Shown: positions 30,067 through 58,640, numbered from the whole stretch's first letter. The stretch is 60,026 nucleotides of DNA, filler included, from Sphacelaria rigidula (GCA_964200075.2; 8 parts of 8 records of this genome joined end to end with filler, not necessarily neighbours in it), one strand, 5' to 3'. Notes: generated by a model not told the origin, from the letters alone. Translations and numbers: made by a program.

Positions 30067-31254
30067 CTCGTCTGTAACGAAGATAAGAAAAATCCGGGAG
30101 AGTTCAAATGGAAGTGGGGAGAAGAGGAACTGCCGATCGTGGACCAGTATACATAACTTGGCGTAGAGATCTCAAAACACTGTTCTTGGGATGCACACGT
30201 AAACAAAGTAATAGAAAAGGGTAAGGCACAGATAGGCAGGTTGGACGTGATCCTCAGAGATCCGCGCCTAGACACTAGGGTTAAGATATGTATGCATATA
30301 AACGTGATCGTATCAAAGCTGGAATATGCAGGAGAAGCATGGGAGGGGAACGTAAAGTTGTTGCAGAGGTTGGAAACAGTACAGATGGCAGCAGCTGAGA
30401 AGATACTTGGATGCTCGAAAACGACGAATGATACAGTTTTGAGAACAAGAGACATTAGGAAATTGCGATGACAATATAGCGTAAAGAACATGCAGAGAAA
30501 GTTATTTCCAGCTATAGTTGATAGGGCTGTATGGAGGAAAACTACGATAGGGAAGGCTGGAATAAGGTGGGATAAGGAAGTCGAGAAAGTATGGAAGGAG
30601 ATAGGAGAAAACCAAGACGAAATACTGTTCATAGATGAAGACACGGGGTACAAGGCAAAAATAGGAGGTAGGATAGAAATAAGGGGGAAAGGAGCGCTCA
30701 GACACAAAGTAGACGAGGAAGAACACCTGGAGATATACCGGTGATTGGGAGAGGGGATAGGGATGAAAGCAAATTTGCATAGCCCGATGGACGTTGCGAA
30801 AAATATGAAAGTGCGATTTCGGGTGAGGAACCTCGATCTTCGAGGAAGAAGAAATATATATAGCAGTCGTCGAAAGGAGGAGGAGGTACATGTACAGAAC
30901 TGCCTCTGTGCAAAGGAATAGAGAGCGTCAGTCATGTAGTTGCAGAATGTAAACTAAACAAGGAGGAACGGGACATGCTAAAGGGGGAAATGCGGAACGT
31001 AAACGAAGATACCATGAAATCGTTTGATGCATTTGACAGTGGGGAGAGAACGATGGCTATACTAGGAGATATATGGTGGCCAGAGACGGTGAAATAGGAC
31101 GGGGATAAGATACGTAAAAGGTTTTTGTGTAATATATGGAAAAAACGTAATGAGCGCCGGAATGTTGGAGGAACGATGCTCCCTCTCGAAAAGGATGCGT
31201 GGTCAATGGTCAAACGACTAAGGCAAGCAACAAATGAGTACGACCCCCCCCCCC
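30067..31254 (+). mobile_element. Decayed LINE, 3' part of ORF2 ending in oligo(C)
   Basis: RT-thumb-type LPIVDQY..LGVEI...SWDAHVNKV...KLEYAGEAW and a degenerate C-terminal Cys/His region. ORF ends GCVVNGQTTKASNK-TGA, followed by GTACGA-C11. Confidence 0.9.
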
Positions 31255-33293: not shown

Positions 33294-33550
33294 TAACACT
33301 TTCTACGATAGCCCCCCCCCCCCAAACCATCCCAAAAGTGTCACGAAAGCAATGGTCATACAGCGCCTAATGTTTGGGTTCAGGCCGCATAAAGCGCCTC
33401 ATATGGGCGACATTGGCGAGAACGAACCCAAGCGTGGGAATTCCCAGCTGCTCGTTGTGCTCAGCGTTTTTCCATTTCGAGTCATGTAGGGATTTTGCGT
33501 CCCAAAACCAGGCACTTTTTTGGAGGGGGGGCTATCGTAGAACGTATCAT
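33294..33550. mobile_element. Sola2-type MITE inserted in gypsy pol
   Basis: TIRs ACACTTTCTACGATAGCCCCCCC / GGGGGGGCTATCGTAGAACGT. Outermost bases are decayed. Confidence 0.7.
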
Positions 33551-36380
33551 TTGGTCGAATTCATGAACCCCAATCAGTCGGCTGATGATGTCGGCGCCTT
33601 TGACCAGACCAGAGTACTCGTTCACGAAGGTAGACAATCCATCCCTCTCACGTCTTCTGCATGTTTCAATGTACTTCCCCGCCACTTGTTGGGCTTTGCT
33701 CAGGCGCCCCTCCTACGGGCAGACTTGTCAAACGCGTGTCTAGCGACCGAACCGCAAGCGTCACCAGGCACCTCGATCAACGTGAACTCTTCGCCGTTAG
33801 ACAAGACTCGCCCTATGGTAGAGGACGAAGCGTCCAAAGCACCCGACCCAAACCCCCCAACTACATCACTAGATAGGTTATCGCCAGAGCAACGTGTTAG
33901 TTTTCAACGTTTATGGGACGATATCTTCCCACATTTGCGACACATTGCTTTTGATTTATCTAGTGAGGGTTAAACTCGCACGGTGATCGATAGGCCGCGC
34001 TCCATTTTGATAAGATGTTTTGAACGGTTATCCAAGGCACACCCATATCTCGGCCGCTGCATCACTACACCATTCAAGATCAAAATTGCTGATGGCACGC
34101 CACCTATCGCTACGCGTCCGTACCGTACAAACCCCCTCTTAGCAGATTAAAGTAAGGTAATCCTCGACGAATACTTCTCCCCCGGTTTAATACGGCACTC
34201 CACGTCCCCGTGGGCCTCGCCGCTTGTTGCCGTCCGGAAGAAGAACGGTAAGATCAGACTGACAGTCAATTGCCAACGATTGAACACAGTCGCCAAAATC
34301 GTTCGTCCACCTCTTCCCCGGATAGATGAAATCATTGACTCTCTCGGCGGGGGTAAAGTTTTTTCGAACCTTGACATGCAGTCCGGCTCCCACCAACTTG
34401 TGATGGACCCGCAACCTATAGAATTGATGGCGTTTGATACACCATCAGGCCCGTATGAATAGTTGGTAACACCACAAGGTGTCGCCGGCGCCCCCGGGAC
34501 ATTTCAACGTGTGATGTTTCGTGTGATTGACGGATTGTCCAAGTGCCATATGTATCTCGTTGACGCGGTAATCCACGGAAGCACCCCTTCCGAGCACGTC
34601 GAGCCCTTGGCGTCTTTCTTCGCTCGCTTCAAACTACACAACTCGGAACTTGTCTCATCCAAATCCCGCGTTGGAGCGACGAGCATCGAATTTCTGGGCC
34701 ACTGTATCACTCCTGAAGGTCGTAGCGCAGTCCTCAACAAGGTTGCCGCACTTACAGATGTGCCCATGCCACGGGATACATCTCAACTGCGCTCCTTGCT
34801 CGGCGGTTTGAGCTACTACCGACAGTATTTGCCGAACCTAGCCCAAATCCTCAAACCTCTCACCTCCTTTCTAAAACAATGAGTGAAATTCGCGATTATG
34901 TCGGAAATGGAGAAATCATTACGTCAACTACTTGACACACTTTCGCGACCACCAATCTAGGTTTTCCCATACTGGTCCGCCGCTGAGAAAGGTTCACGTT
35001 CGTTCCGACTTCACACGAATTCCTCCAAAATTAGGTTTTGGCTGCACGTTAGAACAGGAGCAACCAGATGCTAATGTTCGCCCCATTGTACATTTTATCG
35101 AACCATCTACCCCAACGAACAAAACTAGTCGGTCATGGAGGGAAATGCCGGCGAAATTGTTTGTGGAGTGAGACGTCTCCGTCAGTACTTGTATGACAGT
35201 CCGTTCGTGATTTATACAGATCATAAGCCTTTGGGAAACTTCGCCAAAATGGCGGAATGCAACGCGCGGGCTCAACGCTGGTTCGAAATCTTGTCTTCTT
35301 ACAACTTTACGCTGAAGTATCGGACAGGACCTCGAAACGCAAACGCTGATTTTCTGTCTCGCTTGCCCATCCCGGCCTAACCCATCGACAGCTCCGCCTT
35401 GGGGCGCATCATGGATCCCACCGAAGACATTGTATATTTCATCAGCAGAAACGGTCATAGCGGAATCTACACGCCACTCTCACTGAACCACAACTCGGTA
35501 CTTAGCATCGATGGGCTGACGACTACAACTCACGCTTCTGTGCTAGGCAGTATGACACCACAGTCGTGGTGTTCAGTTCGGAGTAGAGCTAGTACAAACC
35601 GGAGCGGGAATGATCAATTCCGTGCAACTGGTCATCGAATAGCTTGTGCTGCAGATGTAGACCCGTCTTATACTGACTTCGTCTTCCCGGTTCAAGTTCG
35701 AGATTTCATCTCGAGTAAAACCCGGGGATGGCGGGCCGCCGATACGGCCGCCACCCTGGCGGCCTCTGGCCCGGACATTCCCATCCTGATCCCCATCCCG
35801 GTTCCCGATACTGTCTTTGCGCCCCCTCAACCACCGCGGCGCGAGGCCTCCGAAAGATCGATCCCATTCACGGCACCCATTCCTCCCATAGCCGAAGCCT
35901 CGGCTTTGCTCCCCTTCTCCGGTGATGGTGTCCCCACTGATGCCTCATCATTCGATGCCCTAGTTTACGTAGGAATCGAAGACAGCGTTCCGCTTGAAGA
36001 TACACGAACTGATCCCCCCACCCATATCCTCACTGAGCTATCGCCAAAAGGCTTGCTTTATACGGATAATGATGGCGTTGTTCTTATAGCTCGCTGGCCC
36101 ACAGCGCCCCTGCGTGTGGGAAAACCTACCAGTAAACATGCCTGTTCGTTAGGTGATAATCCCACACGAAATTATGTGCCGATGCTTCTGCATCCACGGG
36201 TTCTACATGAATGTCATTCGCAAGGATCGACACATCTGGGAGTCGCTAGGACCTCCCGGATGCTTGAACGTTTTTATCAGTCGATTTGTATATGTGTCAG
36301 GCGCCAAAAACTTCGCGCCAAACGGTTCAATGGCCAAATATTTCCATGCCACTCCCCAACGGGCCTGGTGAAGTAATCTC

Positions 36381-36638
36381 GAGTGATGCTGCGATAGGGT
36401 CAGCATTTTTGTGGCCAAAACCGGTCTGATCCAGCAGTTCCTCAAATTAGAAACTACACAAGAATATGGGTGAGGATATCCCCGTTTGCAAATTTATTAG
36501 GGGTATCCCTAGCAAATTGGAAGAAAAACCCGAGCGTACTCTCACCTATTTCGAAAGTCATGTTTTGGATGAGATAAAGGGTTCCTAACAATTCTTATCT
36601 CAGGCCGTAAAAGTGCTGACCTTATCGCAGCATCACTC
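36381..36638. mobile_element. Sola2-type MITE, 258 bp
   Basis: TCTC|GAGTGATGCTGCGATAGGGTCAGCA...TGCTGACCTTATCGCAGCATCACTC|TCTC. Removal with one TSD copy restores integrase GPGEVISWDYF. Confidence 0.88.
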
Positions 36639-36908
36639 TCTCATGGGATTATTTCCGTTCGTTTCCTCTCTCTGATAATGGTAACAAGTACATTTTGCTG
36701 TTCACGGATCGGTTTAGTCGACACGCGGTGATGCATGCTGTTTCGGAAGCCAACTATTGTGCGGCAGGCACAGCCAACGTTCTTGTGTACACGTGCATTC
36801 CGCAATGGGGTGCACCCAAATAATTCTTGTTCGATAACGGCCCATGATCAGTAACCTCCTAGGTGCCCATCGCATTTTTACTAGCTCATACCATCCGCCC
36901 ACAAACGG

Positions 36909-37201
36909 CACGGGTGGCCACTGGGGTCTGTAACCTGGCCGTTTTGGGACCTTATCCACATTTGGTAAGGTCCGCGGATTAGGTGGACAACTGAAGAGCA
37001 ATCGCACAGTATGGACAGGTTCGAAACAAAGCATGTTCCAGTCTACAGGGGAGTCACCCGCCTATAGGCTGGGACATGTTTTGTTTCGATCCTGTCCATG
37101 CTGTGCGAATGCTCTTGAGTTGTCTACCCAGCCCGCGGACCTTGCCAAAGGTGGATAAGGTCCCAAAATGGCCAGGTTACAGACCCCAGTGGCCACCCGT
37201 G
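36909..37201. mobile_element. Fold-back MITE with CAC...GTG ends (CMC/EnSpm-like), 293 bp
   Basis: GG|CACGGGTGGCCACTGGGGTCTGTAACC...CCACCCGTG|GG. Removing it with a 2-bp TSD restores HPPTNGRTERVN. Confidence 0.85.
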
Positions 37202-37431
37202 GGTAGGACTGAACGAGTCAACCGTACGATGGCTCAAATGCTTGCAACGGTGACTAACGAACGACAAACGGACTGGGACTTGTATTTTCCCCTTGTTCAG
37301 ATGAATTCCAACAATTCAGTCAATGCCGCAACGGGATTGACTCCCAATGAAGTTCATATTGGCCGTATGCCCAGGTTGTCACTGACGGTGTTCGAACGGA
37401 AACCTTTCGGAGGCCATCAAAATTTGAATCG

Positions 37432-37481
37432 GAGTCATCCTACGATAAGGGGGGGTATTTTGGGCCATTTGTTGCTCGATA
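37432..37481. mobile_element. Terminus of a Sola2-type MITE (contig end)
   Basis: GAGTCATCCTACGATAAGGGGGGGTATTTTGG. Confidence 0.6.
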
Positions 37482-37581
37482 NNNNNNNNNNNNNNNNNNN
37501 NNNNNNNNNNNNNNNNNNNNNNNNNTTAATTAATTAANNNNNNNNNNNNNNNNNNNNNNNNNNNNNNNNNNNNNNNNNNNN
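37482..37581. other. Artificial contig linker
   Basis: N-run + TTAATTAATTAA + N-run. Confidence 0.98.
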
Positions 37582-38335: not shown

Positions 38336-41300
38336 TTACCGGCGAACCAGCGTTAGGCGTTCAATGGCGCCCTCGTCCATCATAGCCGGAACGTCTGCCA
38401 GGGATAGCTCCCTTGGCGTACCCCCGCCCCATTCTACCTTGTACGAGTATCGGCGAGAAGTGTCATGAAATGATTGCCCGACGATACGTCCCTCAAATAA
38501 CTTGGCTCCTTCCCAAGCGGGCGTCGCACGGCGCCGTCCCTCGACGTATACGATGGGCGCGCGAATTCTCCGCTGGATTACCGTTCCCTCGGGAAACATG
38601 CCGTGCGCTCTCACCGGGGCTCTGGCGACGTCGGAAACATCGTGAGAGGTGTGAGGATGGTCAACGAACGCCGTCGATGGATTCAAGGACATCAACACAG
38701 CATTGCTGCGAGCATTCTTAATCGAAACCGTCGTCAGTTGCCACTCGGATGTATCCCATCTGCTTTGCGTCATGTACGCAGACATCGGCATGCCCAGAGC
38801 CGCAAAACTCGCAAGAGGGATAGCGCGTAGGTTCCGGTGGCTGACTGTCTGCGAGGTACCAAGAAACCACCGCCCTCCTCCGTCAGTGGCCTGCTGGATG
38901 TCGTGAATCCACATCATGATGTCTCCCGCATCGAACATTCCATCCGAGGAGAAGGCCCTGTCCCATGGGGATGGAGCTTGACGCGCGATCACGACAGGAA
39001 AAATATCCTGGCCCTTATTTTCGCTCGCGTTCACGCGGATAAGCGCCGTGGACCCATAAGGTAAGCCCTCTTGCATGCGTGTGAAGGTGGTGCCCATCTC
39101 CACCTCCCGGTCGCTGATGGGCTCATCTGGGTCGCGCCGCCGCGACCATTCCATCGGCGCCGAAATCACTCCACGCTGGATTAGTGGCCACAGATGCCCC
39201 TCTCCGGTGCGGCATCTCTGGCATCTTCGTAATTACAGACATAAGTGATCGGCACACGTCAAGTGACGGTGAGCATGGGCGGAAGTACAGTTGACTCTTT
39301 CCGGGGTCGACGACTCATCCTACGACGATGGGGAGGGGGTACTCATGATCCTCTATGTCGTAGTAATATAACCATAGACGTCGCGTCCCTACAAAGCCCG
39401 GGCGGAGCACGCTTGGTTCCGTCCGACCCGGCTCGCAATCAATCACCCGCCGCAAAGTGTCGCGGAGTGCTCGGTGGGTCGCATAAAGGGCGAGCGGCAT
39501 CCTGCTTACATTGTTCCGCTCGAAGTGTGCTGATTTCTTCTTCTGGATGACAGTCTCTCGTGAGTTGGTTCATGTTATGGTATCACGACATCTATAGACA
39601 GCCACGGCTTATACACTGCGTCATGGGAGACTTGCCATTTAAACACTAGGTAACATGATCATGTCTTCTGCGCCGATTTGAGGCTTTCCCATCCGCACAA
39701 TTTCATCCAGCCCGAGTACGATCGTGGTTACCGCGAAACACCCCACTAGTAGCAGGCGAACAAAAGTGGTAACCTGGTTGCCTACGTTGCGCATTGAGTG
39801 GCGTGTTTTGTATCGTGAGCGACAACAGACGCCAACCCCACCGGGGGGGGTCCGCCCCTGCTATGTCGGGACCGAGCACGCCGGGCTTTCGCCGGGCGAC
39901 CGTGTCGATGAAGGGGGGTGGGTGGGGGGTATTTCGGAGCATTCCTCTTCGGAAGTAGTCATGAATGCTTAGCTCAATGCGATGGTCATCGATATATATC
40001 GCTCATTCCTACCTCTGAACACCGCATTGATTGAGATACAATTGCACCGTGAGAGGTGTAGGTCGTGCGACACACCGACAAGCCTCTTACTGTCGAGTCA
40101 AGAATATCCCTGTACCGTAGGGTGGGCCCGATGGCTACATTTCCAGATGAACCTCCCTCGAGGGTAAGTGTGGCATCCATCTTCCATCCCGTCGATGAAG
40201 TGCCCGCGATCATTAGCAGAAAACACTTGCGTCCATGACTGTGAACTCCGATAATACCGCCTATCTCGATTGTGCAGTCGTTAGGCTTCGTACTCACCCG
40301 CAGGATAGCTGGTACGACGCCACCACTCCCGGCGTGGACGTTGCTGCGATTCGAAACAGAGACATGCAGCCGCTGACATGGATGGCCATCCGGGATGATG
40401 CAGCACTAGGACGTGTTGCAGCAACTTCCATCTTGTGGACGAATAACACCTTGCGTCCGAGAAGTGTGTTCTTCCGTTTCGTCAGTGCGAAGCATCTTGT
40501 CGCCTGGTTCGTGTCCTCTGCTCCGCACGCGTTTTACGGAGCAAAACCGGGTGCGCAAGCTCGTGAGAAACCTCTTCTTCGATCTATGTTGGCATTTTGG
40601 GGGTGTAACTCGGGTCATGGCTCTCACATGTCATGAATCATCATGCACGCTCGTCATATACATCCGTGCTCTCCTCCCATTGCCTCATGAACCCACCGGC
40701 GCTCGGCGGTGCCTGCCTCGAAACTTGACGCTACGGAACGAAACTCACCACATTTATCGTCGCCATCAGTACCTGACCACTGCCCATTGTGCCGAAGGAC
40801 TGATGTATCTCGGCGCCGTTGGCCTCGCGAAGCTCGAAGCGAAGCTCTGGCGCAATGTTTTCGTAAAGATCGAACGAACTCAGGATCCGCATCTTCCCCG
40901 TCACGACCTGGTGCCTTATAAAGGTCTTCACGACGCCACCCTTGCCGTCTAACACGCTCTTGCCGTGACATGCGGGGAAGTAGAAGGCTTGAATATGAAG
41001 GCGTCGGGCTGGGTCACCGACGACATACACTTTGCAGTCCCCGATGTATTTGAATGCCTTGGCGCATTTTAAGTGCTTCCCGCGCAGTTATCACTAGCGG
41101 TGGTAGCGCGTGTCATGGGTGCTGCACCTACTCTCTCAAGCATAGTCGGGATTTCCGTTCGAAGCAGTCTGTTGAATGTGTGCTGTACCCACGCATTGTC
41201 TTGTGAGCTGTCGTCGCTCAGTACGATAAACGAGTATACCCATACTTTGCCATGGAGCCTGAAGAAGACCGGAACGGGGAATAGAGTGGTGGAGTCGCGA

Positions 41301-43600
41301 TTCCAGTGCTGAAACTGCACCTCGTCCTGCTCATCGTGCGTATAGCGCTCTTGGAAGTCGGCGACGAGGATGACGTGCCCGTCTTCGAGGGTGGCAATCA
41401 TTTCATCGAACGCCACTCTCTGCATATATTTTTGTCGTCGATGAGGAAAGAGGCGGAGTGCAGTGGACCTCACATCCGCGAACAATTTATCCACAAAACC
41501 ACTTCACCAAACCGCCGCCTGTTCGATGTCGGGGGTTGTATAGGCGAGGGACACCACGAGGCCAGCAATCTTAGAACAACTATATCGAGCGTTGTTTCTC
41601 CGAAGTCGGTATAAGTGTATAGTCTGTGTATATTGTAAATCCGTCTCTGTTACCATAGTCGGCACGGCCAGGACATGTGAGGAGTGATGCTACGGTGGGG
41701 TCGCACGAACTTGTTATATGGGGAAAATTCTCAGAAGCTATTCATCTCGGCCCACACACGAGAATCATGGAGTATGTATGAGAGCGTCTGCCAGGGTGAC
41801 TACCTCAATAGGCTTTGTATATCCCGCTTGGATTTGCAAACGGGGGTGCCCTCACTCATGTTCCCATGCGTCTAGAAGTTGCACTAGGAGTCCCTGAGGC
41901 AGGTGAAGGCTTCCGCAAAAAAGTGCATCTGCACTGTAGCGTTGCTCTTTCGGGCTTCGGGCAATAGGTGGGAACGATAAGGTTGTAGTCGCGGGCGTTC
42001 AGTGCCTATGAGTGGACCGGTCGTGGCAAGGTTGTGAGACCTTAATTCCTTGTTTTTCAGTTTTCGTGTGTGTGCGGGCGGAGTGTCGCATGTGTGACCA
42101 TTTAAGGTGTGCGTGAGCCTAAACCTCAACGCCGCGGCGTGCCCTGTTGTTATCTTGCAGTATTGTCATCGATCAACATTACAACGCATCTTCCGAGGAG
42201 GTCAATCTCTGTTCACTCCTTGCGGCTCCCCCGAGTCGCCCCCGTCGTTGTTCACGTGTGTTGCACGCCGCTCCCCCCTCCGCGATGGCGGGATCTCTTT
42301 ACCCCTCTCGTCGATGGCGACGAAGACCTCCCATCAAAGTTCGCGTTGTTGACCGAGTCCCCCATCTTCAGCGGCATCCCGGTGGGCCTATCGATGGCGA
42401 GGGCAGTAGTAGAGGAATGTGCTTTGCCGCTTCTCGCATTCCGGGCAATGTCCCATGACGCACGCGTTTGTGTGTGCCGCGATATCATTCCCCCCTTCGG
42501 TCCGGTACAATCGGACCTTCTCGCAGAGGAGGCGATCACACAGCGAGCCCATACTGAAGACGTCCTTCACGCTTGACGATGGGAGGAATTTTTGACACCC
42601 ACCGTGTGCGTATAGGTCGCAATGGCAAGTGCACTGCGAGCCCGGTGTCTCCCCGCGATGAAGCTGTGGCCATAGACATACTAGCGACTTCATAATAAGC
42701 TTGCCCTTGTAGCAGTGTGGGCGTAGACAACATCGAAAAGACTGGCTGATGACGTTGAATGGCAGCAGCTTGTCGAACGTGCCTCTTGATACGCGGTCGG
42801 TCTCCGACTTTCCCTCTATGAACTGGGGCCACACAGCATGGACATGGCGGGAATGGAGCATCGGCGGTAGGTCGTGGGGTCTCAGTGTGGTAGTGTGCGT
42901 TAGGTGATCTACCAACCGTCCCGGGGGGGGTGACGTGTGTTCACAATCAGTCGGGCTGGCGGGGATACAGACTTTGTATCCGGTGTCCAACGACTGGGCC
43001 TACAGCCGAGAGGTTCATACATCATCTGTCACAAGGGGTGCAGGAACTACGCATCGTTGGTCAAAGCTGAATGTCAATCTGCCGTTAATGACGACAGGGG
43101 GGCACCCTGAAATACACACATATATATATATACATTTTCTTGGGTGTTCATGTCCATACGCGGGCGGCCTGCTCACCGCATCCGCAAATGACTTGCACAC
43201 AGTTTCATGCAAGTCCGTCACCGACCCAAGCATGTATCGTACGCTCCGGGCTGGGCACCTCTCCGGTTGGAGGCACTCCAGCGATCGGTCGACAGGAGAT
43301 CGGCGATGAAAACCGGGTCTGTAGTCGTGCTTCGTCTTAGTGTCGCTGGGAGAGGGCTGGGTATTGTCGTCGATGATGTCCCTCACCAAAGCGAGTGCTT
43401 GAGGGCAGCGAGTGTCGAAGCAGTCACTGCGCCTTGCACGTTTCCCGGTCCTGTCACGTGGGTTCGCCATTAAAAGTATTGGTCTGGTGAGAACTTGTTC
43501 TCTTTTGTGTTGCCGCCGCAGAGTTTCTAATTTTAGCATACCTTTTCACGGCCGTTCGACGCAATATTTTTCTGAACACACCTGTCCGTTCAGATTGTTT
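38336..43600 (-). pseudogene. Decayed Sola2-type (DDD) transposase with a C-terminal extension
   Basis: ADFQERY..DEQDEVQFQHW...TTLFP, FIVLSDDSSQDN, SDNCAG (frameshift) and YFPACHGKSVLDGKGGVVK at 40930-41400. Upstream SRGTFDKLLPFNV...CCLRPHC; downstream CQRCRTG leads into the 277-aa ORF 38336-39169. Confidence 0.75.
39335..39905 (-). mobile_element. Insertion carrying the second oligo(C)-tailed LINE-like 3' end, inside a MITE TIR
   Basis: Minus strand ...ATCATGAGTACCCCCTCCCC abuts GACTCATCCTACGA (39312). The rest of the TIR (GATGAAGGGGGG...GGGGGGTATTT) resumes at ~39907. Confidence 0.55.
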
Positions 43601-43740: not shown

Positions 43741-44620
43741 CCTTGACTGTCATGGAGGATCTCATTCTCTGGCATGCCGGGCCTGGTTCAGAAACCAGCC
43801 CCAAACAAGCGCCTCAAGGGGGGGTTTTCGTAACCCAACACAAACGTAACTTGCTGTATGCAAAAGATTTACCGCCGGTATATGAAACCAGGCAGTCGGC
43901 ATTATGGCGGTCGTCAGTGGTGACACCTGTTGATGCGTACAGAAACGATAGGACACCGACTCGCTTACGCGAGGGCTGGTTTCAAAAACCACGAACAAAT
44001 GCACTTTGGCGATGATTTGAGCTCGGGTTCAAATCTGCGCGCGAAGCCTTGGCTGTCATGGAGGATCTTGTTCTTCGGCATGCCGTACCTGGTTTCAGAA
44101 ACAAGCCCCATACAAGCGCCTCAAGGAGGGGGTTCGTGACCCAAGACAGACATAACTTGCTGTATGCAAAAGATTTACCGCCGGTGTATGAAACCAGTCG
44201 GCATCATGGAGGGCGTCAGTGGTGACACACCTGATGATGCGTACAGAAACGATAGGACACCGAGTCACTGACGAGAGGGCTGGTTTCAAAAACCACGAAC
44301 AAATGCACTATGTACGACGGCTTGAGCTCGGGTTCAAATCTTCGCGCGAAGCCTTGGCTGTCATGGAGGATCTTGTTCCTCGGCATGCCGTACCTGGTTT
44401 CAGAAACAAGCCCCATACAAGCGCCTCAAGGAGGGGATTTCGTAACCCAGCACAAACGTAATTTGCTGTGCGCCAAAGAGTTACCTCCGGTGTACGAAAA
44501 TAGTCTTTCGGTATCACAGCGGTTGTCAGTGGTGACACACGTGTTGACGCGTACAGAAACGATAGCACACCGACTCACTTACGCGGGGTCTGGTTTCAGA
44601 AACCATGAACAAGTGCACTA
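43741..44620. repeat. Tandem repeat, ~305-bp unit x ~2.9
   Basis: CCTTG(A/G)CTGTCATGGAGGATCT recurs at 43741, 44047 and 44352, and units align throughout. Confidence 0.92.
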
Positions 44621-44996
44621 TCATCAAGGGGAGTGAAATTATGCTAGGCGCAAGCGCGGGCGGTCACGCGTCAGTATAGTTTACTCGGCTCATGCCACAA
44701 CGTGTGAACCATTACGTCAAGCACCTTCGGCGGCACATACGTATATCGTCACCAGTGTCATTTATCGCACTTGTGTCGAGTATGTTATTCACTGGGTTAC
44801 GAGACAGACGTCACGTGTGTGCATCCTGTAGGATGTACCGTCGTTGCAGTGCTGCCCCTGTCGTTGCACATGTGCAGAACCAAAGCACCTGGCTTACCAA
44901 CTCAGTCACGTGGCGCATCGAAGAACCATATATCACATGATTCCTTGTTGGATAGTCATGGCATCCCTGGATTGGACCCTTGGGTTATGGTATTGC

Positions 44997-45096
44997 NNNN
45001 NNNNNNNNNNNNNNNNNNNNNNNNNNNNNNNNNNNNNNNNTTAATTAATTAANNNNNNNNNNNNNNNNNNNNNNNNNNNNNNNNNNNNNNNNNNNN
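44997..45096. other. Artificial contig linker
   Basis: N-run + TTAATTAATTAA + N-run. Confidence 0.98.
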
Positions 45097-45215
45097 AAGC
45101 CTATTGATTTTCCTGCATTTGGATGACAGCCTACAATGAGTTGCTTTATTCTGTGGTAATGCCACTTCCAGAGACAGCCACGGCTTTTACACTGCCTCAT
45201 GGGTGTCTAACCATC
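45097..45215 (-). mobile_element. Fragment of the second LINE-like family
   Basis: Homologous by eye to 39530-39628 and 15240-15305. Its 5' junction abuts a G/C run at 45215-45235. Confidence 0.55.
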
Positions 45216-45598
45216 GGGGGGAAGGGGGGGGGGGGTCTACATCGGCACATTGTCAAATTCGACGAATCGCGGCACAAACCGCAAGTATTATAAGAGTGGT
45301 AACAAACAAACACAGTATAGAAGACGACAACATGTATCGAGTGTTGGGGTCTGATTAAGACCTACGGTATTGCCTTACGCCGCCACACCCCTCCCTTCCC
45401 CCATCCTGACGTAGGTACACTCTCACGGTGTACTCCGAGAGTATGAACGCGACACAGCCATAGTTGGCAACCGATCGGTCATTTCTCGCGTTGTTGTATC
45501 CGCGGGGAAGTAAGGGTTATGTGACCAAGGACACTCGCTGAGAGACACGTGCCGAAAAGATGCAATTCACCGGCGACTGTTTTCACACGAGGAAACGC

Positions 45599-45872
45599 TC
45601 AGCTGGATCTGCGATCTTCGCACCTTTGCTCTTCCATGGTGGCGCAGGCGAGCGGTCGGGGAACGCTTGCCTTCCTCGCTTTCTTCTCGCTATTCGACGT
45701 GACGCCGTCTCCGGCTGGATCCTGAGATTCTTTCCTCTTCCGGCGCTCTGGGTCGCCCTGACACGATATGCAAAGGCGCTTTTTTCGCTCGACCAGAGTC
45801 GCATCTTCTGAGATAGGGACGAGCAGGTCGTAGAACGTATGGTGTGCAACCCTGCAGTGCGTGCATCGGTAT
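45599..45872 (-). CDS. ParB-like/PHD-like gene, exon with the second half of the zinc finger
   Basis: Pyrimidine tract-CCGCAG|A (phase 2). Encodes (R)YRCTHCRVAHHTFYDLLVP...KRLCISCQGDPERRKRK. 3' boundary uncertain. Confidence 0.65.
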
Positions 45873-46011
45873 CTGCGGGAATGGGGAAAGAGGAATATAT
45901 GTCTGCGATGAATCGATCGACAGTCTCGCGAGCAATGCCTTTATCGATGGGTGTGTATCTCGGTGCCCGCCCTCCGACTAGATACTCTATGTGCGCTAAT
46001 TTCACTCTTAC

Positions 46012-46244
46012 CTGACGTGTAGGGTGGGTTTGCACGACTCGCACACTTTGCCCTCGCGACTACCCGCTGCTGGGCGGTCCCGGCCCTCCTCACCCTCGCC
46101 GTCGGCTTCCCCAACGGATGCGTCCTTCACATCTCCCTCGCCGCCGCTACCCACGAGTTTTAAACGCGCTGTCTTGTCGTTTATCGCGTTCCACTTTTCC
46201 CTCCACGTTTCGCTGAAAGACTTGAGGGTCCCTCTTTGTGTCAT
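46012..46244 (-). CDS. ParB-like/PHD-like gene, exon with the first CxxC
   Basis: TCGCAG|ATG...GTCAG|GTAAGA. Encodes MTQRGTLKSFSETWREKW...KVCESCKPTLHV. Phase 0 to 2. Confidence 0.7.
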
Positions 46245-46516
46245 CTGCGAACGACGGTGAGGGCAATATCTCTGGTATGTCAAGTATGAACTAAGATACA
46301 AAATAAGGGACGGCCGGCAGCAAGTCTCTGCTTTGTCTCTGGAGTGCAAATGCATGTGGGCGGTGGTGTTTCACACTCCTCGACCAGTACTACCGGGAAA
46401 GACACAGTTGACTTCCGTGCCTGAGCAGCGAGGCCGGTCACCGATCAGCTCGCGACAGCGAATATGTGTCTCAACACTCTTAGGATAAAGTCAACTACCG
46501 ACGGGGAGTAACGCAC

Positions 46517-47018
46517 CAACTCCAAGGGCCGTGGAATTCTTCCCTTGTAGACCGCCTCGAATTCCTTCATGGCTTCGCTTTCCTGTTCTTCAGCCGGCAG
46601 GCTTTCTCCTGTCTCTGATATTGTCTTGTCTACGGACGATACATAGTCCCCCACGAACGGCTGGAAATATTGCAACCCGTACGTACCGTTTACCATTTTG
46701 TGCTCGCCGCTGTTCGCAGAAATCGGAATCGAAAACATCAAACGTCGCACCAAATTCTGTGACAGGTCGACTAGTGTGCAGAGATACTCACGTACACGGC
46801 GGCGCATTCTCACGTGGCCTCGATATGGACAGAGCGCCTTACCTCGGGCGGCGGCTGGGCTACAGATTAACGGCACTGACTCCTTGAACCTGTCCGTCCA
46901 AGCAAGACGAGGCACCACGCTCTCGTTTCTCTCCACTTGGTTGTGCGCGATGCGGGCGTTTTTGGTGATCCGATCCCAGTCTTTCGGTGTGGATGTCATC
47001 TTGTTCGCCCTCGAATGT
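46517..47018 (-). CDS. ParB-like/PHD-like gene, internal exon(s)
   Basis: GCCAG|A (phase 2) to TTG|GTGCGT (phase 0). Frame is open throughout and may hide a small intron. Confidence 0.55.
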
Positions 47019-47567
47019 CTGGCGTGGCACGGTCGAAATCGAGGATGAATGTTGTTTGGGTACCGTCCTTGGGATCTTTCATAAGCATCGCGATATATTC
47101 GAAATAAAGACACACCTGCACTCTCCGCCTGTGATGTGTGGCCTCGCTCATCCTCGAAAACAGCCATCTACAATTCGTGACCTCTGGTGTTTATACGGGT
47201 CGATATCGTTCTCCAGTGATTCCGGTACAAAACACTGTTGATGTTATATTTTGTTTGCTACGATGAGTGAGGTCACACATCCCAAGCGGAAAATGCATTT
47301 GAATTTTATTTCGAAACCTTTTCGATGTTGATGAAGGTTCCCGACGTTCGTCCTCTACCAAAACTCTATCCTCAATTTTGAAAATAGACTGCTTCACGCG
47401 GAGGGGGGAGGTATGTGTAGTTATACCTTGGAAAAATTGGTTATGGCTGTCTATCAAACAGTACACATACCACATGACACACTCTCGGCATCCTTCGGTG
47501 CGGCGAATTAAAGGAAGATAACTCGAGATTATCACAACAAGCGACTGGATGTACCGGCGGTGCATAC

Positions 47568-47803
47568 CTTACGAGCGTATTGACGGCGATCGATTGCGCT
47601 GCGGGTTTGGCATGTAGATCGCTGTAAGCCTTGCTCTTCAGGTACGTCAGCGAAATACATTTCGCGTCGATACCGGGGTCCGACGTCTGGAACGCCCAGG
47701 CAATGACCTTCATTGCTTCCGGTGTAGTGGCGAAGCAGGCCTTTCGCCAGTGCCGCATTGTCACCAGCGACAGAAAATTCAAACCCAGGGGGCACCATCG
47801 GAC
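47568..47803 (-). CDS. ParB-like/PHD-like gene, probable internal exon (acceptor unresolved)
   Basis: LSLVTMRHWRKACFATTPEAMKVIAWAF...NTLV, ending AG|GTATGC in phase 2 matching the next exon. No canonical AG found at the 5' side. Confidence 0.45.
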
Positions 47804-48270
47804 CGTGCAGAAAAACATCAGCAGATGCGGTGAATCCGAGTCGGCCGTTTCAGCGTCCGTGGAAGTTCAAAATGATTCATATTACCGTACACAAATTATC
47901 CCGACTGAACAGAATATCGGTACCGGCCCCCACATCGAATCGTCGCCCCCCCGCTCCAGAGCGGAAACCTCACTGCGACCGTCGTGCGTGCTGCATTACA
48001 TACGTGGTCGACGTCTGTCGTGTTCGCTTCACACTGGATTGTTTCTCGGCGTACGAGCGGTGGGAGACGCAGTACACGCGTCGTAAATCGTCCGGCAACT
48101 AGTTTACAACAGTACAAGCGGACTTGACTCGGTTCCGAGATGTAACGTACATGACCCGCGGCGCACATATGATACAATACGACTTTAAACTTCACCCAAT
48201 GGCCACTATCGTCCCCGTGTAATGCAGATCCGGTTTTGTAGTACCCCGTATTCCACATTCCACTACTCAC

Positions 48271-48413
48271 GTTCGTGAACTCCTTTGCTATTTGTTCCCC
48301 CGTGACGGCATCGCTCCCTGTCCTCTCCTGGACCGAGGTTATGATCCCAACGTACATGCAAAGCTTGTCGTACGTGTTGCGGGGGGACAGAGTCTCGCCG
48401 ACATCGTTTAAAG
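48271..48413 (-). CDS. ParB-like/PHD-like gene, exon 2
   Basis: AACAG|CT...AAC|GTGAGT. Phase 1 matches exon 1 and gives RILGN-ALNDVGETLSPRNTYDKL. Confidence 0.7.
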
Positions 48414-48704
48414 CTGTTCGAAGGCATGCAGGCAGCAGCAACGGTTGACGCGGTTATTATTCTCCGATGTTCCAGACTTTTTATTCGAAAACATTTCCTC
48501 TCTGACACAGCTGATGCTGGTCAACAACAATATAAATCTATAAAGTCGTCTCTTTGGTCCTTCATATGTCTTTCTGTATTCGCTCGGACGATCCCAAGAC
48601 ACTTTGCGTTTGAAGGCGGACAGAGGTAAAACATTTGCCAGGCTCGTATGTTTGTCCGAGCACGGTCAGCCGGGAAACAAAAGGCCCCGTGTTTTATCCA
48701 ACAG

Positions 48705-48900
48705 ACTGTTCTTGGGCAAAAATGCAATTGTTGCAAAAATCACCTGCGGCCACCGGAAAACGCAAAGGTGTTTCTGAACTGTCTCAACGAGTGCAGCAAT
48801 ACAATCGCAGATGTCAACAATCGCGTACGAGGTCGTTCGTTCGGCCAAAATCAAAAACGGCCACCAGAAAAACGCGAAGGTGTCCTGCAATCATCTTAAC
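48705..48900. repeat. Two fragments of the Harbinger-like MITE arm in intron 1
   Basis: GCGGCCACCGGAAAACGCAAAGGTGT and CGGCCACCAGAAAACGCGAAGGTGTCCTG resemble the reverse complement of 10030-10085. Confidence 0.5.
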
Positions 48901-49192
48901 GGCTGAAGCACGACATTCGGAGGTGTCTGCGTATGGGCCGTAACCCGATGCATCTGGACCACATGGACAGTTCGTGTCACGTTATTCTCGCCTGCCATAA
49001 GAATCGGCATGATAAGTGGCGACAGCCGAGCTGCCGATTATGTCGACAGACCGCACGATGTAAGTCCGACTGCATGTTACTTCAGAACTGTGGCGTTGGA
49101 ATCTGCTATGTTTTGTTTTCGTTTGGAATCTGAGAATTGAACGAAAGGTCTGAAAAAAATGCGCCTAAACACGTCCCGTCGATGACGATCGG

Positions 49193-49244
<52 letters not shown>

Positions 49245-50352
49245 CGCCGCGGCCGCGGCGCGGGNNNNNNNNNNAAAAAAAGGCTAAAAAAAAAGCCCCA
49301 AACCCCCCCCCCCCCGGGACGGCGGGCCCCCCCCCCCCCCCCCCCCCCCTCGCCGCCAATTCTTCACACAGGGCTCCGAGAGAAGGGTGAAGATTATGAA
49401 TAGCAAAATGTTTGGACTAATCACAGCCTTGCCATGCACAAAAATGCGAGAAGGGCCCACCTCACCGGGACTAACAAAAGAAGCGAGAAACGGAACAGAT
49501 TTCTGCTTTTTGTCGGAGAAAAACGGCCGTAAAACATCATCGCAGAACAAATATAAAAAGTTGGTGACTTTCGGGAAAACATCGCAGATGTGTCGCAAGT
49601 CTTGCAGATATTTCCCGCAGGGACGACATTGGGTGTGTGAGACGTACACAATCTTGCTAACAAATATGTGTATGCAAAACAGCAACCAGAAACACCCAGG
49701 CGCCGCAGCAAAGGTATACGTGCCGGCACACTCGTGTATGCGAAGTGAAGGGCCATACTGTTTTTTAGAGCCCGAAAAAGAGAAAAGGCGCATGAAAAAA
49801 TTTGAGGCGCTGGTTCCCTCTTTTTAGGGACTGAAAAAGAAATAAGGCACACAAAAAAGAAAAAAGGCGCAAAAGAATAACAAAAATGTGCCGAAAACGA
49901 AAAAAAAAGAGGCGAAAAGCATGAAAACAGTACCCGAAAAACACGAGGAAAAGTAGTCAAGGATCCAAAGTCTACACCTCAGGCACACGCGAACCGCCGC
50001 TTGAATCATAGACCCGCGGACGAGCTGTGTGAGAGGCCGAGCCTCAATTTCTGGCGCTAACTAGTGTGCAGCCACAACAACCCCCCCACCCCCCCAACGA
50101 GACCAGTCGTGACATCCCTGGCCGGGACAGGCGGAGGGCGAGGTTCTCATCCTGATGCACAGCGTATACACGTAATCCCGACACGTTTTTTTGTACATAC
50201 TTGAGTCGGATGACCCAATCATTATGTTGGCATTTTTCAAACACTAGGCCGTGCGATAATGTTTTTTCTTGCATCAGATAGTTCGGTGCTCTCGAAACGA
50301 TTGCGGAGACGCGTGGCTACAGAAAATACCATCGGTCAATATCGTGACTCAC

Positions 50353-50764
50353 CGTTGCCGAGAATGCGCATGACCCCTGGCCCAAATTCGTGGTACACCC
50401 GACACGGCACGCAGTGATCTTGCTCGAAAATTGATCTCGCCGCGGATATCCGATGATTTCCGTCCAAGACGCGAAAATCACACGTCGAGAAAAACTCCGG
50501 CGTTATTCGTCCATCCTCCGGGACACCTTCATGCGGCATCACTATGGCTGGCGGATTGTGCGTGAGCCACCCCTTTGAGTTCAACGAAGTGATGACCTTC
50601 TCCACTCCACGAGGGTTCAGCTCGCGAGTGAGGGACGTCACGGTGATTCGAGATAACTTTATCGGAAACATACCTACGTATTGGCTGGTGAGAAGGCTTT
50701 CCGTGTTCCGCTGTACTGGCGCTACTGTCCCTAACGGCTGACTTCTGACATCAGGGGAATCCAT
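50353..50764 (-). CDS. ParB/Sulfiredoxin-like N-terminal domain, exon 1
   Basis: TRELNPRGVEKVITSLNSKGW...PAIV...FRVLDGNHRISAA...VPCRVY follows the ParB N-domain pattern. Donor G|GTGAGT. Confidence 0.8.
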
Positions 50765-51431
50765 TCGGCTGAAACAACGGTAGCCTGCTGCTTGAGTGTA
50801 GTGGTATGCAGGCAGCAGGCGGCAGTGCAGTGGGTTGTGTTATGGAGGGGGTTGGTGGGGCGGGGGGTGTAGAACGAGGGACGTCCAGAACATTCTAATA
50901 ACACGATTAGTTGCAGATCACGATCGGAACACGTTACCCACCTCACCCACGACACCACCTGCACTGGGAACGTGGCAACGTATCTGGGTTATGTCAGTAT
51001 CGCATGAGTACTAATAAGCCGTATTCTTCAATAATATCGTACTTGGTAACTAGTGCGACGGCGTGTTCCTTACAGGCTTCACTTTAGGTGGAATGGTGAC
51101 CCATTTGCAGCGCGTCAACTGACATACCATCGAAACAATCATACCAGTCAGGCAGGTGAAAAGACCTAATGATTCCGATATTTGTCGATATGTGTCCCAT
51201 TCTCTAATCGCGCTTCGGGTGCACATGGTCAGTTGCACACAGGACCACACGATATTTGTCCCGAGATTCTGGCGGTCAGGGCATGTTGATCTTAAATCCC
51301 GGAGAGATTGATCTAAACGTGGAACAGCGCCAACACCTTCGTTACTGTCCAAATATCACCGCCCCGCTCGTGCCGCCACAAACGTATCGGCATCGCCCAC
51401 TCTCAAACACCCACTCACCAGAGGAATTAGT

Positions 51432-51941
51432 GTGGAGCGTGCGTTTATGCCTATTACAGAGGCGGGTCGCCTCCTGTTCGCGACCTCGGTTGAACCCGCA
51501 GAGCGGAACCTCGAAGCATCATGTGGGCATACAGGCGGCTTGACTCCAAAAAGACGGCAATCCCCTCTCGAGTCGATCATTCCGGTGTCGGATGCAGCTC
51601 TCCCCACACAGCCGATGGCGCTGCAAGATATGCTTGCATCGAGTTTCGAGTGCTGCCGCAGTCTACGGTGTGTAGAGCAGTTCGTTGAAGGGACGCTTGA
51701 TGCTCGGAGGTTGGCGATGGAGCAAGAGGACCTCAGTCGTGTCGTAGCGCGCAAAGCAAGACTGGCTTGGGTTCGAGGGCACGTGCCGTATCAGAAACCC
51801 GGTAAGAACATGGGATCAAGGCATGCTTCCGACAGCGTGGTCTGCAATCGTTTCTTCGCTCGAGCCAATGGGGTGTTGAAGAACCTCGTTGAGAACGCCA
51901 AGAAGAACCCGGGTGCTCCATCGGTGTCGAGAACCACGTGA
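51432..51941 (+). CDS. Hypothetical ORF/exon divergent from the ParB-like gene
   Basis: 169-codon open frame with protein-like composition. No recognised motif. Confidence 0.25.
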   Translation: MERAFMPITEAGRLLFATSVEPAERNLEASCGHTGGLTPKRRQSPLESIIPVSDAALPTQPMALQDMLASSFECCRSLRCVEQFVEGTLDARRLAMEQEDLSRVVARKARLAWVRGHVPYQKPGKNMGSRHASDSVVCNRFFARANGVLKNLVENAKKNPGAPSVSRTT

Positions 51942-52443
51942 GTATGATCGCCAAGTTTGGGTAGATGTGTACAGCAGGATCCTTGTTCCCACCGTGACCT
52001 TTTATCATGACCGATTCCGCATTGTTCTTTTTAATTCAGGAGCCCAAATGTTTCGAACCGGCTGCCCGCTACGGATGTTTTCAAACAAGACGAAGCCTTC
52101 ACGCGTAGTACTGGAGTGCAGGCAGTAGTGCACAGCAGTAACACACGCACAGTAAACTAAGTTAAGCCTTCACGTGTAGTACCGTCGTGCAGGCAGTATT
52201 CAGTAGTCATATCCTCTGTTTCTGTATCCATTGCCATGGACGTGCATCTGCATGTGACCTCGAACCCTACAGTACAGTGAAAACGGTATACCGTAATTGT
52301 CGCGAGTCATAGCACACCCCCTCGACCAAATTTCAAAGCTCTACTCCACAACAAGAAGAGCATCAGTTCTGAAAAGGGTGACGCTGAAAAGATCTCGTCA
52401 ATAGCTGTCCGAAAACGCGTCATTTGGTATTGGCACCCTCTTC

Positions 52444-52511
52444 GAGTGATGCTGCGATAGGGTCTGCGCTTTTGCGGCCTGAGAGGAAATCGGGATTTAG
52501 GCATGTCGAAT
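52444..52511. mobile_element. Terminus of a Sola2-type MITE (family of 36381-36638)
   Basis: GAGTGATGCTGCGATAGGGTC.GC.CTTTT.CGGCCTGAGA matches the right end of 36381-36638. Confidence 0.75.
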
Positions 52512-52611
52512 NNNNNNNNNNNNNNNNNNNNNNNNNNNNNNNNNNNNNNNNNNNNTTAATTAATTAANNNNNNNNNNNNNNNNNNNNNNNNNNNNNNNNN
52601 NNNNNNNNNNN
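52512..52611. other. Artificial contig linker
   Basis: N-run + TTAATTAATTAA + N-run. Confidence 0.98.
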
Positions 52612-56900: not shown

Positions 56901-58640
56901 AGCCTTCGACGATGCCGCATTCCGATGCGCGGTGGCAAGGATCGTAGGCGAAGGTGGCGATATCTACACGTGCTTGGAGGTCGAACAAAGACAGATCAAC
57001 ACAGTTGTCCATTTTTGTAGACTCTTTGTCTTGACGCGTACGCGCACTTTTCGAAGCCTCCCTTTTCAATGTTGGTCCGTTTTTTTCGGTGAAAACGTGG
57101 CAACATGGCGCCTGTGTGCCTTTGGCCCGGCATAGTGTCTCGCATGAGATTATTTATTCTGCATTGGCGCTGTGTTCACATTAACTTGACGCCGTTCATA
57201 TATCGGTGAATCAGTTGCTCAATGACGACATATATCCCCACAGTCGTGGCGCCCCGGTGATCCGATTTGATTTATTCGCATGAAGTAGTTGGGAAAGTCG
57301 CGTTTTCGACATCCCTGATTTAGCCGTTCGTGTCTTGTCTGTCTAGTGTTTGATCTCCGTCGTGGGAACACAGGTACACTGGTAGAACCTTGGAAAACAT
57401 CCCAGGGGATGCAGGAGTGCTTCTCTCACTTGGGAATCGAAATTTGAAGTCGTGCGCAGTGGGAGAGGTGGGGTGATGCCGCAAGAGCACGTGCCCACCA
57501 TGTGAGAGGTTGGGCGATGAAGTGTGAGGGTAAATAAATATCTGACGGTGTGTAGCCCCCACATCACCCACTCTCGTTTCGTCTCCCAGTCGAATTATCC
57601 CCACACGGGATACCTGTGATGCAGCGGCAGTCGCAGGAGTTCAGGTACCTCTTCATGCAACTGGACACGACGAAGAGTTGGTCTGACTCGAAAGCCGCCA
57701 TCGATCGACTTGCTGAATATGCCGCGTGGATGAGAGGGGCGCCGCGGCGGCATGTATGGTCGCCGGCGATGAGGAGATATTTCGCTTCATGTATCACCTC
57801 ATACGGAGTAACCCCAGCCACCATCACTTGCTCAGAATATACGTGGGTGACTGGCACGTTCTCTACCATATGGTAAAGGCAACCATGGTACGGTATTGGG
57901 GGGTGGGGATAGAGTACATCGCAGAGGCACTTGGCTTGGACGGATCAAAAGCATCAGAGGCGAGCAACTATCGGGTGGCACACCATACCATCAGCGTGTT
58001 CTTCGAAGCAATGTCGGGTAAAATTGCCATGTATTACTCCGAGCATGGCGCCGACATGGACATCATTATCATTGGAGCCGCGGCGGGCGATGTCGATCCA
58101 GCACTGGGTGCTGCCACAGCACCAGCATCGAACATCGCGGAAACATCAGAGCGAGCACCGAGCGCTCCCACGACACCACCCGGGCCCCCAGACGCCGCCA
58201 GTAAAGTGGAACCTGCGGGAGCTGCGGCGGCATCGCATCTGCCCAAGGATGGACCTAACCTGTAGAGAAAGTTGAAGACGTGTATTGTGTAGATAGACTG
58301 CGCAGGTATATATGTGACCGTGGCTGTTGTTGTATCCTCCACTAGGTATTCATAGCCCGCGCCTTGTGTTGATAGAAAAGGTGTGTTGCGCTTGGTGTGA
58401 TGCGCCCTTGGGTGCACATGAATACGGCGAGTAGTCCGGCCATGCGCTCCTGCGAATCGCTCCACATTGCTTCCACAACTGAAGCACTCTTGAGCTTGAA
58501 GGAGGGATAGTAGCTAGTTGTACCACCCTGTAGAGTTTCAGCTTGCAGACATCCGTACAATATCAGTAACCTCCAATTGCGTGTCCGAGGGGCATGTTGG
58601 AAAATGACGTTTTCGCTTGTACAAATAGTAAGTACTTTTT
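53935..58640 (+). pseudogene. Decayed large transposase, DUF6589/KDZ(Zisupton-related)-like
   Basis: Chain of frameshifted ORFs: Cys-rich part (55165), HLAQVLKTRG...FVAAHGFCMT (56520), VAGDEEIF...YVGDWHVLYH...YWGVG..IAEALG...NYRVAH (57760-57985) and FACTN..Y (~58610). Confidence 0.55.

Follow-up and report, generated by a model that had tools for sequence, protein, structure and literature searches.

Genes for ParB-like proteins have been described as accessory cargo of giant algal transposons. The 21.5 kb Ectocarpus transposon Sola1-1_Ec32 carries an accessory gene for a 1104-aa protein with a ParB-like and a DNA-methyltransferase domain (PMC12477816), and the red-algal Plavaka elements (Bostrychia) carry PAG3, in which a ParB-like domain is combined with a 2-oxoglutarate (2OG) oxygenase and for which the authors propose binding to its own element (bioRxiv 10.1101/2025.02.11.637652). 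Also, Dam-type methyltransferases with an N-terminal helix-turn-helix (HTH) of ParB type are described from chlorophytes and chytrids, along with phage methyltransferases of ParB-terminase loci (PMC4738411), and phage ParB homologues were shown by experiment to activate thymine dioxygenases (PMC13229309). Here we analyse a spliced gene for a ParB-like protein from the brown alga Sphacelaria rigidula (GCA_964200075.2), which lies in a stretch of 60,026 nt, called the window below, consisting of eight contigs of ~7416 bp placed end to end. Our reading, to which we assign a probability of about 0.7, is that the locus is one copy, degraded in part, of a gene that exists in multiple copies, spreads as DNA and is most likely an accessory or cargo gene of a large brown-algal DNA transposon.

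When compared to the Sola1-1_Ec32 gene as it is described in the available part of PMC12477816, the window gene likewise comes from a brown alga, has an N-terminal ParB-like domain and belongs to a repeated DNA element, and the C-terminal domain of its homologues shows a faint likeness to N6/N4 methyltransferases. On the other hand, the Sola1-1_Ec32 protein has a recognisable methyltransferase domain whereas the window family gives no Pfam methyltransferase match, the window copy stops before the C-terminal domain, and the zinc finger of the window family is unmentioned for the Sola1-1_Ec32 gene in that part of the account. With PAG3, the likeness is in a ParB-like domain missed by standard profiles, a putative DNA-modifying domain beside it and carriage by a transposon, but PAG3 has another partner domain and comes from another algal lineage, and the tandem inverted repeats adjoining PAG3 have no verified counterpart on the contig of the window gene. 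The fusions of PMC4738411 also bring a ParB module and an amino-methyltransferase of prokaryotic or phage origin together in eukaryotes; they consist of a ParB HTH and an active-looking Dam domain, whereas the window family has the nucleotide-binding domain of the ParB N-terminus and a marginal methyltransferase likeness. With the phage system of PMC13229309, the shared points are the ParB nucleotide-binding domain, the mobile genome and a possible tie to base modification; that system is prokaryotic with ParB separate from the enzyme. Judged by analogy with these accounts, the window gene fits the ParB-like accessory genes of giant algal transposons, from which it is set apart by its zinc finger and by having no modifying domain that can be recognised. 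No publication on a brown-algal ParB-like protein with a zinc finger was found in the full-text literature searched.

Gene structure and the fold of exon 1

The gene is read from the minus strand, and its six exons stand where a preliminary description of the window had placed them (Table 1). Joined by coordinates, the exons give 1800 nt in frame, with 599 codons and 0 internal stops; when exon 3 is taken to start at 47788, as it does in other copies, the total falls to 1785 nt (595 codons). GT is present at five donors and AG at four acceptors, and the one acceptor that had been reported as missing, that of exon 3, is the only one absent. In the S. rigidula protein P0001 (86% identity), exons 1-4 follow one another as in the window gene and are joined at the same points (this protein has DGNHE instead of DGNHR). 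Exon 2 is 90% identical to P0001 by tblastn and also aligns with the Pylaiella protein P0121 and the Cladosiphon protein P0032. At the exon 2-3 junction, KEFTN of P0001 is joined to LGLN and its tblastn match covers 47788-47561, and P0121, which matches exons 1 and 3, aligns its residues 210-283 with 47785-47564 (tblastn, E 1.5e-6). Since the phases agree, no stop interrupts the frame, P0001 extends over exons 1-4 and P0032 has the same architecture, the comparison indicates that the six exons belong to one gene. Many relatives are single-exon open reading frames (ORFs) that run a few residues beyond ..I(A/G)D into GE.., as would be expected from reading on through a GTGAG donor, which suggests a conserved intron position.

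Two refinements of the six-exon model are suggested. Exon 4 may hold a further in-frame intron of 171 nt (46710-46880), which is proposed because of candidate splice motifs and an alignment gap of ~55 residues against the homologues. The 3' end is probably incomplete, because the homologues continue into a further domain: the homology to the Pylaiella protein P0134 stops at ..MEEQR (residue 592), seven codons before the stop, and in the ancestral gene the reading frame probably left the exon within the last stretch listed in Table 1, where one of the two candidate former donors, at 45603|45602, has CT instead of GT and is one base off.

Exon 1 contains the pattern ..TRELNPRGVEKVITSLNSKGW..PPAIV..FRVLDGNHR, for which a ParB/sulfiredoxin (Srx) fold had been proposed. 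An exhaustive HMMER search of 1.84 billion representatives gave 103 relatives of exon 1 at E <= 1e-3, with 34 at E <= 1e-10. We used 52 HMMER relatives as the AlphaFold2 alignment for exon 1, and the model has a predicted local distance difference test score (pLDDT) of 87.3 and a predicted template modelling score (pTM) of 0.76. In the Foldseek comparison of this model with the PDB, the top 12 rows are all ParB, sulfiredoxin, PadC and Noc entries, the best being ParB bound to cytidine diphosphate (ParB-CDP, 6sdk, E 1.8e-5, TMq 0.53), and entries of KorB, SbnI and serine kinase come lower in the list. The matches among viral models agree with the PDB picture, and the best of them are phage ParB proteins. 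As modelled, exon 1 has the ParB/Srx fold, in agreement with the preliminary description, and the fold scores do not separate the ParB/Srx subfamilies. For the longer protein P0001, between 213 and 247 residues of its ESM Atlas model align with ParB/Spo0J-type clusters at TM 0.52-0.61.

Within the family, the motif is well kept. In an alignment of 53 members (A1), D101 and G102 do not vary, H104 and R105 are almost invariant, and DG.HR is found in 85 of the 103 relatives, 72 times as DGNHR. We mapped the nucleotide-contact residues onto the Myxococcus ParB residues of PMC13229309 by spacing, not by structural superposition. On this mapping, the family appears to keep counterparts of the ParB phosphate and base contacts (R47, S60, G65, R105 and the Asn of exon 2) and appears to be without the two hydrolysis residues: the catalytic Glu of GERR and the box I Gln, a feature of the ParB clamps that hydrolyse cytidine triphosphate (CTP), have N103 and L45 in their places by spacing. 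From the retained contacts we infer nucleotide binding, and the exon-1 domain, compact with its 137 residues and confidently modelled, is suited to nucleotide-binding tests.

The likeness to known proteins is one of fold. The exon-1 domain shares its fold and the place of the GxxR-type motif with the CTP switches ParB, KorB, Noc and PadC and with sulfiredoxin, SbnI and serine kinase (6sdk, 8qa8, 7ol9, 6ryk, 6ky4, 5ujd and 5x0b were compared), but the sequence identity to these entries is 9-21% and Asn stands instead of the GERR Glu. Unlike in bacterial and plasmid ParB systems, no ParA partner or parS site is in view on the 7.4-kb contig, where short direct repeats are all that was seen upstream of the gene, and unlike the bacterial ParB/Srx proteins, the product is encoded by a spliced eukaryotic gene and includes a zinc finger. 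Exon 1 has no match in Pfam (E up to 1), scans of each exon against Pfam, NCBIfam and PADLOC gave nothing relevant, and none of the 53 A1 members matches Pfam ParB_N (PF02195) at E up to 0.1. PDB sequence searches with exon 1, the A1 profile, P0032 and P0134 gave no ParB protein and no true match; phycocyanin matches around the DGN.R stretch were at chance level and were rejected. The search of prokaryotic genomes for relatives gave 73 candidate stretches, none of which is a relative. Therefore, the label 'bacterial-type' that had been attached to the domain is appropriate for the fold but not for the sequence, which has neither a Pfam, NCBIfam or PDB match nor a close prokaryotic relative.

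Zinc module, homologues and C-terminal domain

The last two exons join in phase over 46012|45872 and give the motif CESC-x9-CTHC-x4-H-x2-Y-x19-CISC followed by RRKRK, as previously noted except that the last spacer is x19 and not x18. The corresponding patterns of P0134 and P0032 are compared in Table 1. P0134 has all eight C4HC3 ligands, but in P0032 the third position is Ser and two Cys stand next to each other, and the eight-ligand set is incomplete in the window, with Tyr at the sixth position. The His common to all three lineages is the first of the two in the window (C-x3-H), and therefore the PHD-like x4-H-x2 reading is peculiar to the window copy.

This affects the classification of the module, which had been called PHD-like. 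The consensus spacing of PHD fingers is C-x4/5-H-x2-C. Similar to a PHD finger, P0134 presents its eight candidate ligands in C-C-C-C-H-C-C-C order and the protein is putatively nuclear; unlike a PHD finger, the module has the spacing C-x3-H-x3/4-C, with the third ligand shifted in Cladosiphon and Tyr at ligand six in the window. With E allowed up to 1 for P0032 and up to 5 for P0134, Pfam finds neither PHD nor RING in these proteins, and an RBBP6 RING match in the PDB sequence search (E 0.6-0.7) was rejected as chance level. With this spacing conserved in three lineages and no Pfam PHD match, the PHD label was given up, and the histone reading suggested along with it found no evidence of its own. 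From the alignments, the module is best described as a conserved eight-ligand zinc-binding motif and not as a demonstrated PHD finger. On its own, the match of the window motif to Cladosiphon is weak, at a score that 38 of 2000 shuffles reach, and the case for homology of the motif is therefore made by the alignment with P0134, in which spliced residues 462-592 (linker, zinc finger and basic tail) match with a BLASTP E of 8e-10.

The ParB domain and the zinc module had been proposed to belong to one protein, with separate transcripts as the alternative, and the homologues bear this out. P0032 (g13236, three isoforms) can be aligned with the spliced product over its entire length, with the parts in unchanged order, and has the ParB domain, the middle region, the zinc motif and a C-terminal domain within one gene model; residues 138-599 of the spliced product score 85 against it, while shuffles score 37.5 +/- 5 and 0 of 300 reach that score. 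P0134 unites the linker and zinc motif with the basic tail and the C-terminal domain. Because both the Pylaiella and the Cladosiphon protein have the zinc motif at this place in the order of parts, the fusion is read as a trait of the family. The relatives that have an organism name are all from brown algae (Sphacelaria, Cladosiphon, Pylaiella, Ectocarpus and Choristocarpus), and so the family is present in at least five brown-algal genera. A word-indexed protein search with P0032, whole or with its C-terminal region, returned P0032 itself and nothing else.

Beyond the basic tail, the homologues have a C-terminal domain of ~260 residues, in which residues 130-387 of P0134 match residues 541-817 of P0032 (E 6e-17). 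The frame of the window gene stops where this domain should begin, and tblastn found no trace of it in the remaining ~500 bp of the contig or elsewhere in the window. By eye, the end of the domain resembles motif I of N6/N4 methyltransferases. In hhalign, the domain gave E 0.2 against E. coli YhdJ alone and, against eight phage and E. coli N6/N4 methyltransferases, a weak match over 48 columns (E 0.0022, probability 12.9%), which we treat as a lead and not as a result. The glycine-rich and DPPY-type positions are not kept, and Pfam finds no methyltransferase domain in P0032 or P0134. The domain may be a degenerate N6/N4 DNA-methyltransferase fold.

Copy number, decay and competing explanations

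The window was compared with the contigs of four runs of one study, taken at >= 90% identity, and these runs behave like genomic contigs. It was found that 2647, 2194, 1855 and 779 short contigs per run match the gene region at 90-99% identity, and each of the 30 bins between 45400 and 50900, those in introns too, has contig depth. Single exon positions, for example 48359, have an alternative letter that is shared by 8 to 27 distinct contigs per run. In other genomes, a 90% cluster of a Pylaiella relative has 24 members and another cluster, on long contigs, has 45. As hundreds to thousands of short contigs lie over the introns as well as over the exons, the comparison points to a high-copy repeat at the DNA level, and the retained introns argue against retroposition. 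The earlier proposal that the gene is cargo of a mobile DNA element is supported by this coverage together with the published ParB-like accessory genes.

The same contigs reveal lesions in the window copy. At 47788, loose ends in runs X1, X3 and X4 have 17 extra letters and then, by eye, rejoin the window sequence; on the coding strand the extra letters end in CAG directly before CTGGGT.., the exon-3 start of P0001. The absence of these 17 nt therefore means that the intron-2 acceptor was lost by deletion in the window copy. Besides, Tyr stands at the sixth ligand position where P0032 and P0134 have Cys. The 40 best-supported letter differences between the other copies and the window include 17 in exons, of which 7 are synonymous and 10 non-synonymous; several of these letters restore the P0001 residue. 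The suspicion that this copy is decaying is thus borne out by the acceptor deletion and the lost Cys, and we regard the window gene, on this comparison, as a partly degraded copy of its family.

For the function of the intact protein, the following mechanism is proposed. The family protein consists, in order, of a ParB/sulfiredoxin-fold domain, a helical middle, an acidic linker, a zinc module with eight candidate C4-H-C3 ligands and a basic stretch like a nuclear localisation signal (NLS), to which the full-length homologues add the ~260-residue C-terminal domain that is possibly a degenerate N6/N4 methyltransferase. We infer that it enters the nucleus and binds DNA. The ParB-like domain would act as a switch bound to a nucleoside triphosphate (NTP); jointly with the zinc finger and the middle region, it would hold the protein on DNA, probably that of the element itself. 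On the DNA of the element, the protein may mark or protect it or recruit other factors. The protein may also be tied to methylation, and the gene may belong to a particular transposon.

Several points weigh against this account. No transposase, terminal inverted repeat or target-site duplication is tied to the gene on its 7.4-kb contig, and the window gene is likened to the Sola1-1_Ec32 gene by its published description and not by sequence. The four runs are of unrecorded kind and their summed contig depth does not equal the copy number; repeats nested in the introns could inflate the intron counts, although the exons are covered too. The private changes, 7 synonymous against 10 non-synonymous, are on their own no proof of neutral decay. 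At the exon borders, the four mapped runs, which behave like genomic contigs, show no splice joints. Sequence profiles (Pfam, NCBIfam, PADLOC and PDB) recognise no part of the protein. The AlphaFold2 model of P0134 (zinc finger and C-terminal domain, from a 6-row alignment) is unusable with a pLDDT of 33.3, and the methyltransferase likeness is the single 48-column hhalign match, with the motifs for S-adenosylmethionine (SAM) and the target base unconserved.

Among the alternatives, the first is that of an ordinary host gene or a segmentally duplicated host family, encoding a nuclear ParB-like regulator with no tie to a mobile element. It could account for the one gene model with three isoforms in Cladosiphon, the window frame still open over 595 codons and a contig on which no transposase was seen. 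We nevertheless consider it unlikely, as hundreds to thousands of diverged short contigs extend over exons and introns in each of the four runs, near-identical members form the clusters of 24 and of 45 in other genomes, copies show damage (DGNHE in P0001, the lost acceptor in the window), and the contig is short, of the kind that repeats tend to produce. It is less probable still that the ParB/Srx domain is an enzyme, either a nuclease or an adenosine triphosphate (ATP)-dependent phosphotransferase like sulfiredoxin or free serine kinase, and not a DNA-bound NTP switch. DGxHR is closer to the motif of sulfiredoxin and free serine kinase than to the GERR of chromosomal ParB; the subfamilies, however, cannot be separated by the fold scores, and the helical region, zinc finger, basic tail and methyltransferase-like end, as well as the ParB-type whole-protein neighbours in the ESM Atlas, better fit a DNA-associated protein. 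Finally, brown algae carry integrated viruses, and models from Orpheovirus, Cafeteria roenbergensis virus and Marseillevirus are among the viral fold matches of exon 1, but that the gene belongs to a phaeovirus-type provirus, the integrated genome of a large DNA virus, and not to a transposon is very improbable given the five or six spliceosomal introns, the phage ParB proteins as best viral fold matches, a copy number far above that expected of a provirus, and a search of viral contigs in which 84 candidate stretches gave 1 weak phage relative (27% identity) and no eukaryotic-virus relative. That phage relative is a 166-aa ORF (L001 9884-10384, +) on a 155-kb viral contig, containing ..VVIDGNHRLAAY.., and is a small ParB-like protein of phage type.

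The transposon-cargo reading can also be carried further, to a point where we hold it to be rather improbable. The family, unrecognised by the profile libraries tried and borne by transposons, would then combine a ParB switch, a C4HC3 module that is not a PHD finger and a dead methyltransferase-like domain into a long-lived, NTP-locked clamp on its own DNA that serves self-recognition or anti-silencing. The switch would have kept its binding residues and lost its hydrolysis residues. If true, this would be a eukaryotic nuclear use of the ParB clamp principle in which no base modification is needed.

Surrounding sequence and meaning of the family

The contigs of the window are separated by linkers at a regular spacing of ~7516 bases. 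Readings of gene neighbourhood across the linker points are therefore void, and the apparent neighbours are unlinked. The linkers assign to other contigs the transposase-like ORFs between 41 and 43 kb, the tandem repeat of 306 bp and the ORFs between 55 and 58 kb, all of which were therefore rejected as context of the gene.

Table 1. Positions of the gene parts and linkers in the window, and zinc-ligand patterns in three lineages.
Feature	Position	Strand	Details
Linkers N44-TTAATTAATTAA-N44	7418-7517, 14935-15034, 22451-22550, 29967-30066, 37482-37581, 44997-45096, 52512-52611		
Contig holding the ParB-like gene	45097..52511		flanking linkers 44997-45096 and 52512-52611
Exon 1	50353..50764	-	412 nt; ATG 50764; donor GTGAGT; ParB/Srx-fold domain as modelled, residues 1-137
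DGNHR codons (D101-G102-N103-H104-R105)	50450..50464	-	GxxR-type motif; read in sequence
Intron 1	48414..50352	-	GT..AG, 1939 nt; poly-G/C runs, 10-N gap; covered by diverged contigs as exons are
Exon 2	48271..48413	-	143 nt, AG..GT; start of helical middle region; conserved Asn (..ALND..)
Deletion site	47788..47789	-	17 nt of other copies missing; those end ..CAG = intron-2 acceptor
Exon 3	47568..47788	-	221 nt; family start 47788 (LGLN..); start in preliminary description ~47803, +5 codons
Exon 4	46517..47018	-	502 nt, AG..GT
Exon 5	46012..46244	-	233 nt; acidic/Gly-rich linker and first CxxC of zinc finger; BLASTP match to P0134
Exon 6	45599..45872	-	rest of zinc finger, basic RRKRK / KKARK tail, stop TGA 45601-45599
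Tyr codon TAC, sixth zinc-ligand position	45830..45832	-	Cys at equivalent position in P0032 and P0134
Presumed ancestral exon exit	45599..45629	-	candidate donor CAAAG|GTGCGA (exon end 45621); other TCCAG|CTGAGC at 45603|45602
Zinc pattern, window			C-x2-C-x9-C-x2-C-x3-H-x3-Y-x19-C-x2-C
Zinc pattern, Pylaiella P0134			C-x2-C-x9-C-x2-C-x3-H-x4-C-x22-C-x2-C
Zinc pattern, Cladosiphon P0032			C-x2-C-x11-C-C-x3-H-x3-C-x16-C-x2-C

On the contig of the gene itself, self-comparison found no flanking long terminal or inverted repeats. A direct repeat of 35 nt lies upstream of the gene (52093-52127 and 52164-52198, 89% identity, 71 nt apart), and the 16-nt word GGCATGCAGGCAGCAG occurs three times (48423, 50803 and 52113), twice just upstream of exon starts. 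A possible first exon of 108 codons at 51615-51938 (+), from ATG to a GTGAGT donor and with a Cys-rich start, is transcribed away from the gene and has no Pfam match; the divergent upstream ORF at 51312-51938 gave a best score of 0.79 in the ESM Atlas, which is uninformative. Within intron 1, long poly-C/G runs and the 10-N gap occupy 49199-49360, and with a similar run on another contig (59720-59753) they are likely assembly-prone low-complexity sequence.

The other contigs hold unrelated features. On the contig preceding that of the gene, and unlinked to it, there is a tandem repeat at 43741-44621 (period 306, 2.9 copies, 86% matches). Two ORFs on contigs other than that of the gene, at 41069-41503 (-; ..ILVADFQERY..QFQHW..VLSDD..) and 57717-58265 (+; ..YVGDWHVLYH..), have no Pfam match, and from their likeness by eye we take them to be similar to parts of DNA-transposase genes. 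A long pentatricopeptide-repeat ORF at 12118-14934 (-; Pfam PPR_2, E 1e-127), also on another contig, extends into a linker. A degraded retroelement occupies 30067-37481 (+); at 34463-34879 it holds a fragment of a reverse transcriptase (RVT_1, E 1.5e-9), flanked by long ORFs for which Pfam gives no match.

The current view of ParB-fold proteins is that they are DNA clamps driven by CTP and that, in phages, they regulate the modification of DNA bases; it was not until 2025 that giant algal transposons were reported to carry ParB-like cargo. The family described here contributes a form that has a zinc finger and whose methyltransferase-like end may be inactive, and lets one ask whether eukaryotic transposons use ParB-type self-recognition. 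For the annotation of fragmented brown-alga assemblies, such ParB-like genes should be treated as repeat-borne and often broken.

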